Of a stretch of 64,000 bases of DNA, positions 5,503 through 61,079 are shown piece by piece. Both the position numbers and the translations under genes were made by a program. How positions within the stretch are numbered: position 1 is the stretch's first letter; each line of letters begins with the position of its first letter. The DNA comes from Candidatus Berkelbacteria bacterium (lineage in GTDB: Bacteria; Patescibacteriota; UBA1384; CAILIB01), in contig JAYUZR010000020.1 in assembly GCA_043751595.1 (NCBI GenBank), positions 336 to 64,335 of the forward strand, written 5' to 3'. The notes beneath the pieces are model-generated. The model saw nothing but the letters and a program-made list of their open reading frames with translations, did not search any database and was not told the origin of the DNA.

Positions 5503-6143
5503 ACTCTCACTGGAAACTCCCCACCAGCATCGGAATTGCCACCTTTTTTCTGGGTTGGTGCGTTTGGATGATTGCCGCCTTTAGGTATAACGCGTTTTGG
5601 TATGGTGGCGGAGTAGATTACCCAGTGATAGCCAACCCCAGCCTCTTGATTGGTGATGCTCTTGCCCTCCCCTTCTTCAACGCCTTTGCTGCGCGATGGC
5701 TTTTTGCATATGGGTCTCGTAAACAACTAAGCGCGTCAATCTGGCTCACCATACTAGCTCTCGCATTAAGCGCCTACCAACACTGGATCTGGACCACCGA
5801 CACGACCAATGGCCTGATTGACCCGCACTACACCATATCGGTGGTCGGGGTTTGGCATGCGATATTTAGTGGACTGCAGCTTGGATTTATTCTTAGCTTC
5901 CTTAGCCAGTGGCTGCGTGTATCCCCAAACACAACTGCAGCACATGAAGGGCTAAGAGTCTGGTATATTTTTTATGGCTTCGCTTTCGTCTCTTTACTAG
6001 ATGGATTACTCGCCCATTATCTTAGTGGAGAAAGTGGCAGCCTTGTCCTTAGTTTAGTGACACATCCCGAAAGGCTGTATCAGCCGGTGCTTATTGTGGG
6101 GATTGGGTTATTTGCAGGCAGACGTATAAAGAAATTATCATGA
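5499..6143 (+). CDS. Hypothetical integral membrane protein (about 6 TM)
   Basis: Hydrophobic ORF of 214 aa with a 4-nt overlap on the previous gene. No recognised motif. Confidence 0.55.
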   Translation: MNSHWKLPTSIGIATFFLGWCVWMIAAFRYNAFWYGGGVDYPVIANPSLLIGDALALPFFNAFAARWLFAYGSRKQLSASIWLTILALALSAYQHWIWTTDTTNGLIDPHYTISVVGVWHAIFSGLQLGFILSFLSQWLRVSPNTTAAHEGLRVWYIFYGFAFVSLLDGLLAHYLSGESGSLVLSLVTHPERLYQPVLIVGIGLFAGRRIKKLS

Positions 6144-6529
6144 CCCAAGACATCACCAACTACAACGACCAGCAGTCGCCCACCAACAAAGCAATCTGCG
6201 AGACTCTTGCCCAAGAAATTACTGCCGGACTACCAGGTGCTGAAAGTAAAGTATGGCACGGGCACCCCGTCTGGTTTTTGGAAGGAAATCCCATTACTGG
6301 CTACAGCGTACTCAAGAACTCTGTTCAACTACTATTCTGGAGCGGCCAGTCATTTTGTGAACCAGGACTTGAAGATGAGGGCACTTTTAAAGCCTCACAA
6401 GTTCGCTATACCGATGTGGAACAGATTGCCGTTGACGATCTTAGGCGCTGGCTACAAAAAGGTTTTGAGATCCAGTGGGACTATAAGAATATCGTTAAGC
6501 GAAGGGGTGAGTTATTGCGCCTAAAGTAA
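6140..6529 (+). CDS. DUF1801 (YdhG-like) domain protein
   Basis: 129 aa with KVWHGHPVWF and EPGLEDEGTFKAS, resembling PF08818. Confidence 0.5.
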   Translation: MTQDITNYNDQQSPTNKAICETLAQEITAGLPGAESKVWHGHPVWFLEGNPITGYSVLKNSVQLLFWSGQSFCEPGLEDEGTFKASQVRYTDVEQIAVDDLRRWLQKGFEIQWDYKNIVKRRGELLRLK

Positions 6530-6538
6530 ATAGCTTAC

Positions 6539-7402
6539 TTACAACAGCTCTACGCCTTTTTCTTTTTTGGCTAGCACCAAAAAGTTTTCCCCACTCACCA
6601 CTTTCCTACCGGTTTCCTGCTCAAGCTGTTTACGCGCAGTACCCGCAACCGATCCGCCGCGCCTGGCAGCATCAGTATTTTCCAGCATACCCAGTGCGTC
6701 ATCGGTCCGAGCAATCTCAGTAGTTGCCGCCTCACCAAGCTGGGCAAAAAGCAGTTCCAGGTCGCCCATATGGTCTCGTAAGTTTTCGCGCTGTAAGCCC
6801 TTAAGCTTTTTTGTATTCGCTTGGTGTAACTCCGAAGGTTGCCTTGGAGATTTCAGCGGTAAGAATGGCAAAATCCTGCTTAGAGGTTACTCCGCGCCTC
6901 TCCCACTCATCGGTTAGCTCTTGCCGAACAGCAATACCGCGCACTCGGCGCTAGATCCATTCATCAGAGTGGCCTTTAGATTTGTAGAGTGCCTTCATTC
7001 GCTTTTGTGCCAATTCTGGATCTTCAATTTCTTGCACCCGTTCATACCCAGTCTTGGCCAACCACTTTTTAAACGGCTCTGCCTTTTTACTAGGGATAGA
7101 CTGGATAAGCCGAAATAGGCCTTCCGTATTCCAGGAAAGTAACTTTTGCTTGCCACCAGGTGTATCGAAGGCAAGTGCAAGGGGGGGTACAATTTGTACC
7201 CCCCTTTATCCTGAGGATAAAATAGCAGCGCAAGCTCGCTGTCACGTTGACGCAACCTTTTTAGGTATTGAGTTGGATCGACAGAGTCGGTAAGGACAGC
7301 AATTACATCGGTAATTACAAACCACCACTCTCCGCCGTGCAATTGCCGACGGATTTCCTTCTGGCGAAAGACAACTAACTTTTCTTGTGGTGCGCTATTC
7401 AT
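6539..7402 (-). pseudogene. dinD: dinD-like (Bro-N domain, DNA-damage-inducible protein D family) gene disrupted by an indel at a palindrome, an in-frame TAG and a +1 shift in an A-run
   Basis: Bro-N N-terminus KEIRRQLHGGEWWFVITDVIAVLTDSVDP from the ATG at 7402. Protein-like sequence then continues in two further frames: NTEGLFRLIQSIPSKKAEPFKKW...DEWI, then a TAG at 6951-6953, then RGIAVRQELTDEWERRG...ILTAEISKATFGVTPSEYKK, then a frame change in the A6 run at 6807-6812, then KGLQRENLRDHM...TEIARTDD. Confidence 0.6.
7181..7205. repeat. Perfect 25-bp palindrome GGGGGGGTACAA-T-TTGTACCCCCC at the first dinD lesion
   Basis: Read directly: 12-bp arms around a single central T (G7 run at 7181-7187); the frame switch lies in the ~30 nt straddling its left arm. 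Confidence 0.7.
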
Positions 7403-7412
7403 GCAACGGATT

Positions 7413-8027
7413 TTACTCCTTGGACCGCACAAAGTCATCCTGCAGCCCGATCCCGTCAAAAATAGCATCTCGCCACTTTTCAATCCGGTCCATACGGGTT
7501 TTTGATTGCTTAGCTCCGGCAAAGTACAAAAGGTAGCCGCGTTGACGGCCAGGAGTTAATTCTTCAAAAGCACGCCTGAAGCCCGGGTCTTCGTCGAAGG
7601 CCTCTTTTAGTTCATCGGGTATTTCGTAGTCTTCGGTTTTTCGGTATTCAACCTTAAGTCCGGCTTTTTCCACCCTAATTGCCTCCGCGATATAGTCTTT
7701 AAGCACTTGCTCTAACTGAACAATTTGAGCCATACTCGTGAATCGGATTTGTCTACCTGCTTGCACATTTTCAGTTTGCTGAATCAGCAAGTGCCCAGGG
7801 TCGGCCATAAGTGCGCCTTTGAAAAATAAGAGGGCGACATACTGCTTAAACCCATGAATAATCAGGACGTTTGCCCCATAAATGGTATAGCAAGCCTCTT
7901 CCCACTTTAGCTCCTCGGTAAGACCACAAGCCAGAACCAGCTCTCTAAGCGCCTGCGTTTCAGCCTGCCACTGGCTAAGGCGTTCGATACGGGCCGAGAC
8001 TTCTGGGTTATGAGTGGCCATTTGCAA
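7413..8027 (-). CDS. YdeI/OmpD-associated family protein (DUF1801-like N-terminus plus YdeI C-terminus)
   Basis: C-terminal FEELTPGRQRGYLLYFAGAKQSKTRMDRIEKW is typical of PF13376. Confidence 0.6.
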   Translation of the reverse strand: MQMATHNPEVSARIERLSQWQAETQALRELVLACGLTEELKWEEACYTIYGANVLIIHGFKQYVALLFFKGALMADPGHLLIQQTENVQAGRQIRFTSMAQIVQLEQVLKDYIAEAIRVEKAGLKVEYRKTEDYEIPDELKEAFDEDPGFRRAFEELTPGRQRGYLLYFAGAKQSKTRMDRIEKWRDAIFDGIGLQDDFVRSKE

Positions 8028-8030
8028 GGA

Positions 8031-9791
8031 CTATTCTTTTTCGTCGTGCTGTTGCGCCTGCCAAAGGCTGGCGTACTTGCCCTTCTTAGCGACAAGCTCT
8101 TTATGATTTCCAACCTCGGCAACCTTACCTTCTTCGAGCACGAAGATTTTGTCGGAATCAACCACGGTAGAAAGGCGGTGAGCAATAGCGATGGTAGTGC
8201 GACCCTCCCCTGCCTTACGCAAGGCTTCTACAATTTCTTTCTCGGTGTGAGTATCAAGGCTACTGGTTGCTTCATCAAATACCAGAATGCGAGGCTCACG
8301 GACTACCGCGCGCGCAATCGCTACGCGCTGACGCTCACCACCAGAGAGTTTTACTCCGCGCTCTCCCACGATTGTTTGCAAGCCTTCGGGTAGACGGCTA
8401 AGTAAGCCATCCAGCTGGGCAATATTTGCGGCGGAAGCTACTTGCTCATCAGTTGCCTCAGGATCACCAAAACGAATGTTCTCAGCAATGGTTCCGTGGA
8501 ACAAAACAGGATCCTGAGGAACTACTGCCAACAAGTGACGCAGTTGCTCAGAAGAAAGATCTTTGACGGCCACGCCATCAATCGTAACCTCACCGGAGTT
8601 GGGGTAGTACAAACGGAATAAGAGCTTAAGAATAGTACTCTTCCCGGCTCCAGAGCCACCAACAAAGGCAATGCTCTCCCCGGCTTTTACATCAAGCGTA
8701 AGACCCTGAAGAATTGGCCGTGCCTTCTCGTAGCCAAACTCAACATTCTTAAAGGAAACAGCCCCAACTGGGTTGGCAATAGTTTTTGGCTTTTTAGGAT
8801 CCTGAATAGTAAGTGGCTGTCGGACTAGCTCATCAGCTCCGGCAAGATCGGTAAGGCCATCCTTAAGCATGCGGTAGACTGCGCCGAAGAATCCTAGTGG
8901 AGCTGCGATGCGGATAATGTACCCGGATAACGCAACAAGATCACCAGCGCTTAGGTGGCCTGCACCAGATTCTCGAATAGCAAGCCACAGCACTAAGCCG
9001 GTACCAGTAAGCAGAATAAAGGCCTGGCCAGCTTCAACAATACTGTAGAGCTGATTACTCTTAGTATTAGCCGCCTCGCGGGTTGCCAAAAGTGGTTCAT
9101 AGCGAGCAATTTGCTGCTCTTCGGCGTGGAAGAGCTTAACAACATCGATAGAACCAAGACCAGTAACTTCTTGCGCTCCTACTTCTTCGTCGGAAGAAAT
9201 AGCCTTAATCCTCCACTTTTGGCGAAGCTCGGTAGCCGCGATCATGAAGGTAACATAGAGAACAATGGTGGCCACGATAATAACCGCGTAAATACCACCA
9301 AAGACGCGAGTGAGAATTACTGAAGTAGCAATAAGCTCAACCACAGTTGGTAACATGCTAATTACTAGCATATCAAGCAAAAAGGTAACCGAACGGCTGG
9401 CGCGAGTAATGCGCTGCGCCACTGCACCGATGCGTTGATCGTTATGGAAGGAAACCGGCAAGCGTAGTAAGTGACCAAATACCTGGCGGGACATACTGCG
9501 AGCCACACCCATTTGCACCTTGGCAAATAAGGTATCTCGGATGAGGTCGCCCAGCAGAATTGCTAGACGGAAACCAAGGAGCATGATAAGCACCGAAATT
9601 GCTGTTGCCATTCCGGCACCAGCTGGCCCCAACGCATCTACGATGCGACCAAGTAGGATTGGTTCAAAAACCGAGGCAACACGAGCTACAATGAGGGCCA
9701 GTAGTGCCACTGAAGTAATCGGCCAGAACCCTTTAAGGTGCTGGGTTACAAAGTGAATTGGCGCCCCCTTGGGCTTATCGGGATTCATCAT
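8031..9791 (-). CDS. ABC transporter ATP-binding/permease fusion (exporter type, MsbA-like)
   Basis: 586 aa with an N-terminal 6-TM domain, Walker A GGSGAGKST, signature LSGGERQRVAIARA and Walker B ILVFDEATS. Confidence 0.9.
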   Translation of the reverse strand: MMNPDKPKGAPIHFVTQHLKGFWPITSVALLALIVARVASVFEPILLGRIVDALGPAGAGMATAISVLIMLLGFRLAILLGDLIRDTLFAKVQMGVARSMSRQVFGHLLRLPVSFHNDQRIGAVAQRITRASRSVTFLLDMLVISMLPTVVELIATSVILTRVFGGIYAVIIVATIVLYVTFMIAATELRQKWRIKAISSDEEVGAQEVTGLGSIDVVKLFHAEEQQIARYEPLLATREAANTKSNQLYSIVEAGQAFILLTGTGLVLWLAIRESGAGHLSAGDLVALSGYIIRIAAPLGFFGAVYRMLKDGLTDLAGADELVRQPLTIQDPKKPKTIANPVGAVSFKNVEFGYEKARPILQGLTLDVKAGESIAFVGGSGAGKSTILKLLFRLYYPNSGEVTIDGVAVKDLSSEQLRHLLAVVPQDPVLFHGTIAENIRFGDPEATDEQVASAANIAQLDGLLSRLPEGLQTIVGERGVKLSGGERQRVAIARAVVREPRILVFDEATSSLDTHTEKEIVEALRKAGEGRTTIAIAHRLSTVVDSDKIFVLEEGKVAEVGNHKELVAKKGKYASLWQAQQHDEKE

Positions 9792-59315: not shown

Positions 59316-61079
59316 TTACATACGTGAGGGAACCGGCATTCCTAACACCCCATTCGCCAGCTGCACTAATACGCGTTCGGTAAGTTCAGTTACCGCAATC
59401 CAACGCACCTGCTCATCGCCCGCTGCCTGCATAATGCGGCATTGCTCGTAAAAGCGGTTCGCTGCCTGCGCTACACTAAAGAGGTGATCAGCAACGGTAT
59501 GTGGCGTAAGCGTTACGGCCACTTCAGCCAAAACCTTTGGAGTGGCAAGCAATACAAGGAGCAAGGCGCGCTCGCTTTCGGCCAGATTACTACCAACCCA
59601 AGCGCCAGCCACACCAGCTTTACGCAACACCGCCCGCAAGCGAACAATGGTATACAGAATAGAAGGACCAGTCTTGCCCTCAAAACTGGCAAAACGTGCG
59701 GGATCAAACTTATAATCCGACTTTTTATCGCTAGAGAGATCCCCAAACTTAAGCGCTGCCACCGCTACTTTTTCAGCAATTTCTTGCTGTTCTTCTTCGG
59801 AGTAATCCTTAGCTACACCGGCACGCTGCATAGTTTCTTTAGCGGCGGCAAGCAGGGTATCGATAAGCTCCTCGAGGCGCATTACGCCGCCATCGCGAGA
59901 TTTAAACGGCTTGCCATCTTCTCCGTTAAGCGTGCCAAACCCATGGAAAGTAAGCACTTGATCTTCAGGCACATAGCCGGCCTGGCGGCCAGCATCAAAC
60001 ACTTGCTCAAAGTGCAGTCCCTGACGCTTATCTACCACATAGTGACTCTCATCGAATCCATTTTTGGTTCGATCTACGATGGTGGCGATATCGGTGGTGG
60101 CGTACAGGTAGGCGCCGTCCGATTTAAGCAAAATAAGTGGAGGTGAATCTTCTCCTACCGGAATAATCGTGGCGCCGTTGTCTTGCTTAGCAATTCTTCT
60201 ATCCAGTAAGTCCTTAACGATCCCCGGAATCATATCATTGTAATAGCTTTCGCCGTGCCAATAATCAAAGATAATACCCAATCGCTCATACTGGCGCTTG
60301 GCATCCGCCAAAGAAATCTTTGCAAACTGCCCCCACAGAGCCAAATACCCCCTTCTCCCCTGCTGAAGTTCTAGGGTAGCCTTAAGGGCCGCGGCTTTAG
60401 CTTCGGGATCGGTCTTAGCTAGACCCGATTCAAAAGGATAAATCCGGCCGAGATCTTCGAGCGTTACCGGAGATTCGGTTGGATATTCACCAGCAAACAA
60501 TTCATCGAAGTATGGAAGATCTGGTTGTTCGCGCTGAATACCGATAATTACCATTCCCATTTGAGTGCCCCAATCTCCCTGATGAACATCACCCAGTACT
60601 TCGTGACCGAGCAGCTGCATGAGCCGAATTAGCGAGTTTCCAATAACAGCCGAGCGCATATGCCCTACGTGTAACGGCTTTGCTACGTTTGGCCCACCAT
60701 AATCTACGGCGATTTTCTTCTTTTTCTGAGCCAGTGGAGCGAGCAGTCTATCACTCTCGGCAAGTTGCTCAGCAGCCCTCATTACAACGCTCTCGGAAAG
60801 GCGAAGATTCACAAATCCAGGTCCCGCACTACTTACTTCAGAAAAATCAGTGTCTTTCTGTAAAAACTCAACCACCTGCACAGCAATCTCTTGGGGAGAC
60901 TTTTGCAATTGCTTAGCTAGGGCCAAGGCACCATTCCATTGATAATCGGCAAGATCGGGGCGACCAGAAACCACTACCTCCACTCCGTAATCTTGTATCA
61001 AAAAACCAAGCGCACTGAGCGCATCCGTAATTTTGGCTCGCAAGACCTCAGAAATAACTTCCGACGAGAGGGTGATCAT
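59316..61079 (-). CDS. argS: Arginine--tRNA ligase
   Basis: 587 aa with class I HIGH-type PLHVGHMRS and the ArgS anticodon-binding C-terminus. Confidence 0.9.
   Translation of the reverse strand: MITLSSEVISEVLRAKITDALSALGFLIQDYGVEVVVSGRPDLADYQWNGALALAKQLQKSPQEIAVQVVEFLQKDTDFSEVSSAGPGFVNLRLSESVVMRAAEQLAESDRLLAPLAQKKKKIAVDYGGPNVAKPLHVGHMRSAVIGNSLIRLMQLLGHEVLGDVHQGDWGTQMGMVIIGIQREQPDLPYFDELFAGEYPTESPVTLEDLGRIYPFESGLAKTDPEAKAAALKATLELQQGRRGYLALWGQFAKISLADAKRQYERLGIIFDYWHGESYYNDMIPGIVKDLLDRRIAKQDNGATIIPVGEDSPPLILLKSDGAYLYATTDIATIVDRTKNGFDESHYVVDKRQGLHFEQVFDAGRQAGYVPEDQVLTFHGFGTLNGEDGKPFKSRDGGVMRLEELIDTLLAAAKETMQRAGVAKDYSEEEQQEIAEKVAVAALKFGDLSSDKKSDYKFDPARFASFEGKTGPSILYTIVRLRAVLRKAGVAGAWVGSNLAESERALLLVLLATPKVLAEVAVTLTPHTVADHLFSVAQAANRFYEQCRIMQAAGDEQVRWIAVTELTERVLVQLANGVLGMPVPSRM

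Follow-up and report, generated by a model that had tools for sequence, protein, structure and literature searches.

A probable recent pseudogene of a stand-alone Bro-N-domain gene and a hairpin recurring within the coding sequences of its family

The analysis of a 64-kb stretch of DNA (hereafter, the window) leads us to conclude, with a confidence of about 90%, that a stand-alone Bro-N-domain gene at positions 6539-7402 has genuinely become a pseudogene, through a recent inactivation. The gene is disabled by three independent mutations: the loss of one G from a G7 tract, a GAG-to-TAG change and a one-base insertion in an A run (Table 1). The palindrome in which the first of them lies had been seen in an earlier note on this DNA as the place of a mutation; the comparison of homologues indicates that it is, beyond this, a family-wide conserved element. 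The pseudogene itself is ordinary; it illustrates how a candidate defence gene, accessory and probably acquired by horizontal transfer, is turned over in an uncultivated bacterium. In annotations, a single pseudogene should replace the two or three short ORFs. The hairpin matters more than the pseudogene, as base-pairing selection inside a coding region across phyla is uncommon in bacteria.

Table 1. Features of the pseudogene locus and their positions in the window
Feature	Positions	Strand	Description
Whole pseudogene	6539-7402	minus	ATG at 7402-7400, original TAA stop at 6541-6539; once repaired, a 287-aa protein of the Bro-N / PDC-S13 family
Segment 1, aa 1-68 (M1 to G68), ATG frame	7199-7402	minus	N-terminal half of the Bro-N domain
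Segment 2, aa 69-150 (V69 to I150), shifted frame	6954-7199	minus	Remainder of the Bro-N domain, then the first part of the helical region
Segment 3, aa 152-199 (R152 to K199), shifted frame as in segment 2	6807-6950	minus	
Segment 4, aa 200-287 and stop, original frame	6539-6805	minus	C-terminal region, distant DinD similarity
Lesion 1	7199-7204	minus	G6 tract, one G short of the G7 needed for GGG GGG GTA (Gly-Gly-Val); -1 frameshift
Lesion 2	6951-6953	minus	TAG nonsense codon at a family-invariant Glu (E151stop)
Lesion 3	6807-6812	minus	A6 run with one extra base; +1 shift back to the original frame
Inverted repeat AAGGGGGG(G)TACAA-A-TTGTACCCCCCCTT	7179-7207		14-nt arms, now 93% complementary
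Shine-Dalgarno-like AAGGAG hexamer	7416-7421	minus	Ends 13 nt before the ATG, within the end of the upstream DUF1801/OmdA gene

Three lesions in one gene

Three-frame translation of the minus strand gives a Bro-N-like N-terminus in the ATG frame from 7402 as far as ...DSELALLFYPQDKGG. The protein-like sequence goes on in another frame as VQIVPPLALAFDTPGGKQ...DEWI up to the TAG, continues past this codon with the frame unchanged (RRVRG...SEYKK), and regains the original frame at the A run, where it reads LKGLQRENLRDHM...VELL up to the TAA. Since the -1 and +1 shifts cancel each other, two frames are used, segments 1 and 4 being in the same one (7402-6805 = 597 = 3x199). The earlier note had described four collinear segments in three frames; the segments are recovered by the translation, whereas the frames number two. 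The frame hops themselves were reproduced by tblastn, in which the repaired protein is returned as three pieces in two frames, and no second copy of the gene was found by this search in the 64-kb window.

The lesions were defined by codon alignment with the DNA of three intact close homologues, and the alignment to homologues is gap-free over all three sites. At the first one, an intact homologue (L089) reads GGG GGG GTA, i.e., G7-TACAAATTGTA-C7, and the window displays a 1-nt deletion that falls in the 5' arm of the palindrome (arms at 7179-7192 and 7194-7207). The second one replaces a residue that is Glu in 14/14 aligned homologues and is encoded by GAG in the three close homologues (3/3) whose DNA was read. 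At the third one, AAA AAG CTT has become AAAAAAGCTT, in the context TACAAAAAAGCTT that holds one base more than TAC AAA AAG CTT; the removal of one base turns TAC AAA AAA GCT into TAC AAA AAG CTT, the additional base being an A that lengthened an A5 run or else a G inserted behind an A6 run. The palindrome indel, the in-frame TAG and the A-run shift, which had been proposed from the letters of the window alone, are thus all confirmed by the DNA of intact homologues as interruptions of a single gene.

As the DNA now stands, segment 1 is followed by an out-of-frame reading up to a TGA at 6995-6997, resulting in a product of 135 aa that combines 68 native and 67 out-of-frame residues. A product of at most 135 aa, deprived of half of the Bro-N domain, implies a non-functional gene. 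It is annotated as a gene in two assemblies, and the gene calls of public assemblies at the pseudogene are fragments of 47, 76 or 135 aa.

Both indels probably resulted from replication slippage at homopolymers and, once broken, the gene would have been free to gather further hits. Its loss may have taken place under relaxed selection, as is typical of accessory or defence genes. Over the 102 columns with a conservation of at least 95%, the window copy departs at three (R113K, Y145H and E151stop), compared with 2.1 departures on average in intact homologues, 27/81 of which show three or more. As a test of relaxed constraint, this difference (3 vs 2.1) is not significant, so that it is the three lesions, and nothing besides, that mark the gene as decayed. 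The fact that hardly any drift is seen beyond them indicates that the inactivation is recent.

Artefact, recoding or phase variation

A 2-kb stretch around the pseudogene (6100-8100) is 100% identical, with G6, TAG and A6 included, in five separately deposited assemblies (ERZ28573541, ERZ27313706, ERZ28573513, ERZ27315120 and Logan SRR23617157), the contigs of which were retrieved by exact-sequence look-up of two neighbouring proteins. Their naming conventions point to at least three assembly pipelines (scaffold-style, k141 MEGAHIT-style and Logan), and two of them are named after different BioSamples; the comparison is made at the assembly level, at which some of the five may share sequencing runs. 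These data bear on a sequencing or assembly artefact, in which the homopolymer indels, and perhaps the TAG, would be errors in a gene that the organism carries intact. G6 and A6, which hold two of the three lesions, are indeed homopolymers, the classic sites of indel errors, and the earlier note had voiced this concern for them. However, identical lesions over 2 kb in five assemblies from at least three pipelines make an assembler error very unlikely and argue that the lesions are real; the TAG is a substitution and not a homopolymer error, and elsewhere the 64-kb window is densely coding and no further gene looks obviously broken. Although a minority intact allele or a systematic error common to all assemblers may exist, we consider an artefact highly improbable.

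The same lesions would take on another meaning if the gene was subjected to programmed recoding, with the frame shifted at the G and A runs during translation or transcription and the TAG read through to give a full-length protein. The -1 and +1 shifts do compensate each other and the first one is placed within a strong hairpin (-21 kcal/mol), but about 150 homologues are found in one uninterrupted frame and no recoding is conserved among them. This holds for 81/81 metagenome homologues and 69/70 unique viral-contig or plasmid homologues, the single interrupted one being a decayed copy of Parabacteroides distasonis (NZ_OY725768). In addition, the G tract is found inside the stem and not 5-9 nt upstream, and no slippery motif of the X XXY YYZ type is present. 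TAG is a normal stop that is not reassigned in the window, where the 59 long ORFs are ended by TAA (31), TAG (16) or TGA (12) and where TAG ends the adjacent 586-aa ABC exporter. It is also known that G6 and A6 are too short for efficient transcriptional slippage and, to our knowledge, there is no precedent for three separate recoding events in one gene. The programmed frameshift for which the earlier note had left room is contradicted by the uninterrupted homologues, the normal use of TAG and the lack of a conserved slippery site, and recoding is to our mind the least credible of the alternatives, with hardly any chance of being correct.

A phase-variable (contingency) gene in its OFF state, still in use and reversibly switched by the length of its G tract, would be in line with the G7-G9 and C7-C9 tracts of patescibacterial homologues, since tracts of G7-G9 length vary in other bacteria, and with the status of the family as a defence candidate, phase variation being frequent in this class. 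Nevertheless, the restoration of G7 would leave the TAG and the A-run shift, which are irreversible by G-tract slippage, and G6 is found in all five assemblies with no difference in tract length. Moreover, the tracts are absent in other clades, in which the hairpin is of mixed sequence; what is conserved is the pairing and not the homopolymer. A search with the out-of-frame tail as query returned no frameshift alleles similar to that of the window, which is a weak test as the window's own product was likewise not returned. Phase variation appears to us as improbable as an artefact. The preferred reading is a true pseudogene, as the earlier note had thought possible, based on a collinear and full-length homology to intact proteins combined with frameshifts and a stop that are absent from these homologues.

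Family, neighbourhood and spread

The repaired 287-aa protein shares 72-78% identity over its full length with intact proteins of 280-290 aa, the best matches covering 93-100% of the query (best E = 1e-141 among the matches listed, with 76-78% identity for the top-scoring ones), a likeness well above anything chance would give. Where named, these best-matching proteins belong to Saccharibacteria, Kaiserbacteria, Doudnabacteria or the 'Patescibacteria group'. Altogether, more than 8000 proteins are matched at E <= 0.001, a lower bound given by the matches listed. The Pfam domain Bro-N (PF02498) is recognized with 43.4 bits (gathering cut-off of 25.6, E = 5.3e-11) at residues 17-117 of the repaired translation, i.e., across lesion 1. 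As judged from profile scores, PADLOC PDC-S13 (profile PDLC04920) is the best-fitting family, with an end-to-end match (residues 6-282 vs profile positions 4-274 of 286) of 338 bits (E = 1.1e-101), while phrog_15286, of unknown function, reaches 257 bits. The window copy and the stand-alone Bro-N proteins of PDC-S13 are alike in their architecture, an N-terminal Bro-N and, after it, some 170 aa of helical C-terminal region, and the stand-alone proteins are found in variable gene contexts; the window copy differs by its three disabling lesions. We take the defence role of PDC-S13 to be that of a candidate only, derived from defence-island enrichment. In literature searches, no paper mentioning this PADLOC family was found, nor anything relevant on Bro-N together with DinD or defence.

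The ancestral gene had been proposed to encode about 280 aa and to resemble DinD. A single Bro-N gene of about 287 aa is indeed recovered, whereas the identity with DinD does not hold: the NCBIfam DinD equivalog NF008573 gives 21.1 bits vs a cut-off of 242, and its match is limited to residues 153-237 (profile positions 142-228, E = 1.6e-4). E. coli DinD, which is known for its SOS/LexA control and its inhibition of RecA filaments, displays a distant similarity to the C-terminal part of the repaired protein, with a score far below the equivalog cut-off. Homologues are named 'DNA-damage-inducible protein D' in some sources and 'phage antirepressor' elsewhere; 'DinD' is a loose label for this family, resulting from annotation habit and not from membership. 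In the same way, phage anti-repressors of the Bro-N / Ant type (PF02498; PHROGs 130, 2899 and 463) have an N-terminal Bro-N in common with the repaired protein, but the matches with the Ant PHROGs are weak (20-32 bits) and restricted to this domain. No ANT/KilAC C-terminal domain was detected in the repaired protein, and no prophage context was seen at the patescibacterial homologue loci looked at.

At the structural level, no sequence or sequence-profile match was obtained with PDB chains. The AlphaFold model of an intact homologue (P0005) has a mean pLDDT of 60.5, with 76-85 for the Bro-N part. Its best fold match is Deinococcus radiodurans DdrC (PDB 7qvb, 8u0g and 7udi), a DNA-binding protein of the DNA-damage response (Foldseek E = 3.6e-4, probability 1.0, 220-270 aligned columns). 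With TM-scores of 0.31-0.46, an rmsd of about 16 Å, 12-14% identity and no sequence-profile match, this fold likeness of a low-confidence model may be used as a lead only.

The pseudogene is the last one of a minus-strand run (ABC exporter, OmdA, pseudogene) and starts 10 nt past the stop of the upstream DUF1801/OmdA gene, a gap which suggests that it was part of an operon. The OmdA-type neighbour has its best relatives (54-61% identity) in Chitinophaga, Bacillus, Acidobacteria and others, and a contig scan performed with this protein for a syntenic orthologue yielded only matches of at most 61% from unrelated phyla. Similarly, the arginyl-tRNA synthetase of the window (59316-61079) has a best non-self match of 56%, the others being at most 50% identical across many phyla. 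With such values for ArgRS and for the OmdA neighbour, no close relative of the source organism was found in the collections searched, and the Bro-N gene alone points to Patescibacteria. The much higher conservation of this gene (72-78% with proteins named from different patescibacterial classes) than of the housekeeping ArgRS suggests that it has recently spread by horizontal transfer.

Patescibacterial homologues are located in dTDP-sugar / sugar-nucleotide and polysaccharide operons. In Arcobacter cloacae pACLO (NZ_CP053834; L174 2998-3894), a homologue with 43% identity and a perfect hairpin (14/14 pairs) is inserted between cas4 and cas1b in a type I-B CRISPR-Cas operon, while the Parabacteroides homologue adjoins a HEPN/MNT pair and the homologue of a Chlorohelix plasmid adjoins ParB. 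These varied contexts fit with a mobile accessory or defence gene.

Several minor observations were made on these loci. The decayed copy of P. distasonis (NZ_OY725768 190075-190861; L176 3001-3787) is independent of that of the window; it is returned by tblastn as two pieces in different frames (aa 6-147 and aa 149-273), has no annotated CDS and is broken away from the hairpin. In the window, two DUF1801-family genes flank the pseudogene (7413-8021, minus; 6140-6529, plus), which sits in an accessory stretch of small genes of the stress/detoxification type (glyoxalase, AHSA1, NUDIX and class A beta-lactamase). At positions 168-1011, a tRNA cluster (Thr-GGT, Thr-TGT, Tyr-GTA and Trp-CCA) includes an L33 gene (about 712-900) between tRNA-Tyr and tRNA-Trp, and a 118-aa ORF (878-1234, minus) that overlaps tRNA-Trp is probably spurious.

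The hairpin and its conservation

The inverted repeat of the window is the only one of at least 10 nt within 1.1 kb. Across homologues, the hairpin has a 10-14 bp stem around 1-5 nt of A/T-rich sequence and is positioned about 180-200 nt into the coding sequence. In 81/82 close homologues and in 69/70 distant ones (L088-L257), this is also where the best palindrome is found, and in the latter it is the strongest palindrome of the whole gene. The distant homologues have 40-57% protein identity.

At the codon level, the hairpin stretch is identical in four homologues, in which 31/181 amino-acid-conserved codons are identical gene-wide. Among the 81 homologues, the commonest codon at the hairpin has a frequency of 0.9-1.0 (Lys AAA 100%, Ile ATT 100%, Pro CCC 99% and, for the six-fold Leu, CTT 97%), compared with a mean of 0.50 over 160 conserved degenerate columns. 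Variation of the inner stem is compensatory (GTA/TAC, GGC/GCC, GAC/GTC, TTC/GAA and GTCG/CGAC), with amino acids changing accordingly. Three homologues have the same palindrome read in a different frame (WGTICT), and the frame in which it is encoded is not constant between clades. In the close set, 90.5% of cells pair vs 45-62% when partners are slid, double changes are seen at 9/14 pairs, and the covariation score is 0.241 vs 0.089 in shuffles (0/500 as high). In the distant set, the arms are unrelated in sequence (e.g., TCAACTGGCTACAA, AAACCGTTACAA, GAACTGTACGA and GAGTTGTCCGA) and the signal is of the same kind, with 87.6% of cells pairing vs 30-40% when slid, double changes at 12/13 pairs, all four Watson-Crick pair types at some positions and a covariation score of 0.779 vs 0.205. 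When the same peptides are recoded with the codon usage of each gene, 6.5/12 pairs are expected vs 10.4 observed, with p <= 0.05 in 97% of the 94 unique hairpins. The predicted RNA stability ranges from -16 to -28 kcal/mol (z of -4.9 to -7.4); for the G6 hairpin of the window, it falls from -28.3 to -21.4 kcal/mol.

A protein-level cause of the palindrome was ruled out, since the peptide encoded there is entirely different from one clade to another (KGGVQIVPPL, ELYEKIVQLK, ETVTNCHRLK and NWGTICTQV) and in view of the recoding result. The encoded residues (61-70, pLDDT 48) fall in the only loop of the Bro-N model that has a low confidence. An overlapping ORF behind the synonymous conservation was also discarded, as this conservation is confined to about 10 codons. 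An intrinsic terminator was rejected in turn, with no flag at the hairpin in a terminator scan and only TT after the stem. Rfam gave no match at the gathering threshold in the window and none at E <= 1 when the gene was examined at four intact loci, and no paper describing the hairpin was found in literature searches.

Taken as a selected structure, the hairpin is real with high confidence. It resembles structured cis-elements in coding sequences or DNA palindromes and cruciforms, which are similarly kept by compensatory changes and biased synonymous codons. It differs from such elements, among which are frameshift stimulators and mRNA-stability hairpins, in that it has no Rfam match, no T-run after it and no slippery site upstream. 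The alignments suggest that it may be maintained by substitutions that compensate each other, by a skewed choice of synonymous codons and even by a switch of reading frame, the encoded loop peptide being left free to vary. We slightly favour the view that it is an undescribed cis-acting nucleic-acid element defining the gene family and kept from Patescibacteria to Bacteroidota, Campylobacterota, Alphaproteobacteria and viral contigs. It may act as an mRNA stem-loop or as a DNA hairpin/cruciform controlling expression, or could be a sensing site for the encoded protein, a candidate defence and DNA-binding protein. A stem-loop with a cis-regulatory role, or a DNA hairpin linked to this DNA-binding protein, is to us the best guess. 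G-T and A-C mismatches number 23 vs 13 in the close set and 21 vs 20 on unique cores, and this last balance does not discriminate between RNA and DNA. Besides, the G7-9/C7-9 tracts of the patescibacterial hairpin may also expose the gene to inactivation by frameshifts, as in the window, where the G tract hit by lesion 1 would exist only because the hairpin of this clade is built of G and C runs. More broadly, the hairpin offers a testable handle on an uncharacterised and very widespread family (at least 8000 proteins), and codon-level constraints can expose hidden elements in coding sequences.

Two further observations concern individual copies of the hairpin. The homologue of the Chlorohelix plasmid (L175) seems to be devoid of it. 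Many patescibacterial copies (L098-L122 and others) carry G9 and C9 homopolymers in their coding sequence, for instance AAA GGG GGG GGG CAA ATT GCC CCC CCC CTT; runs of such unusual length should mutate at a high rate.
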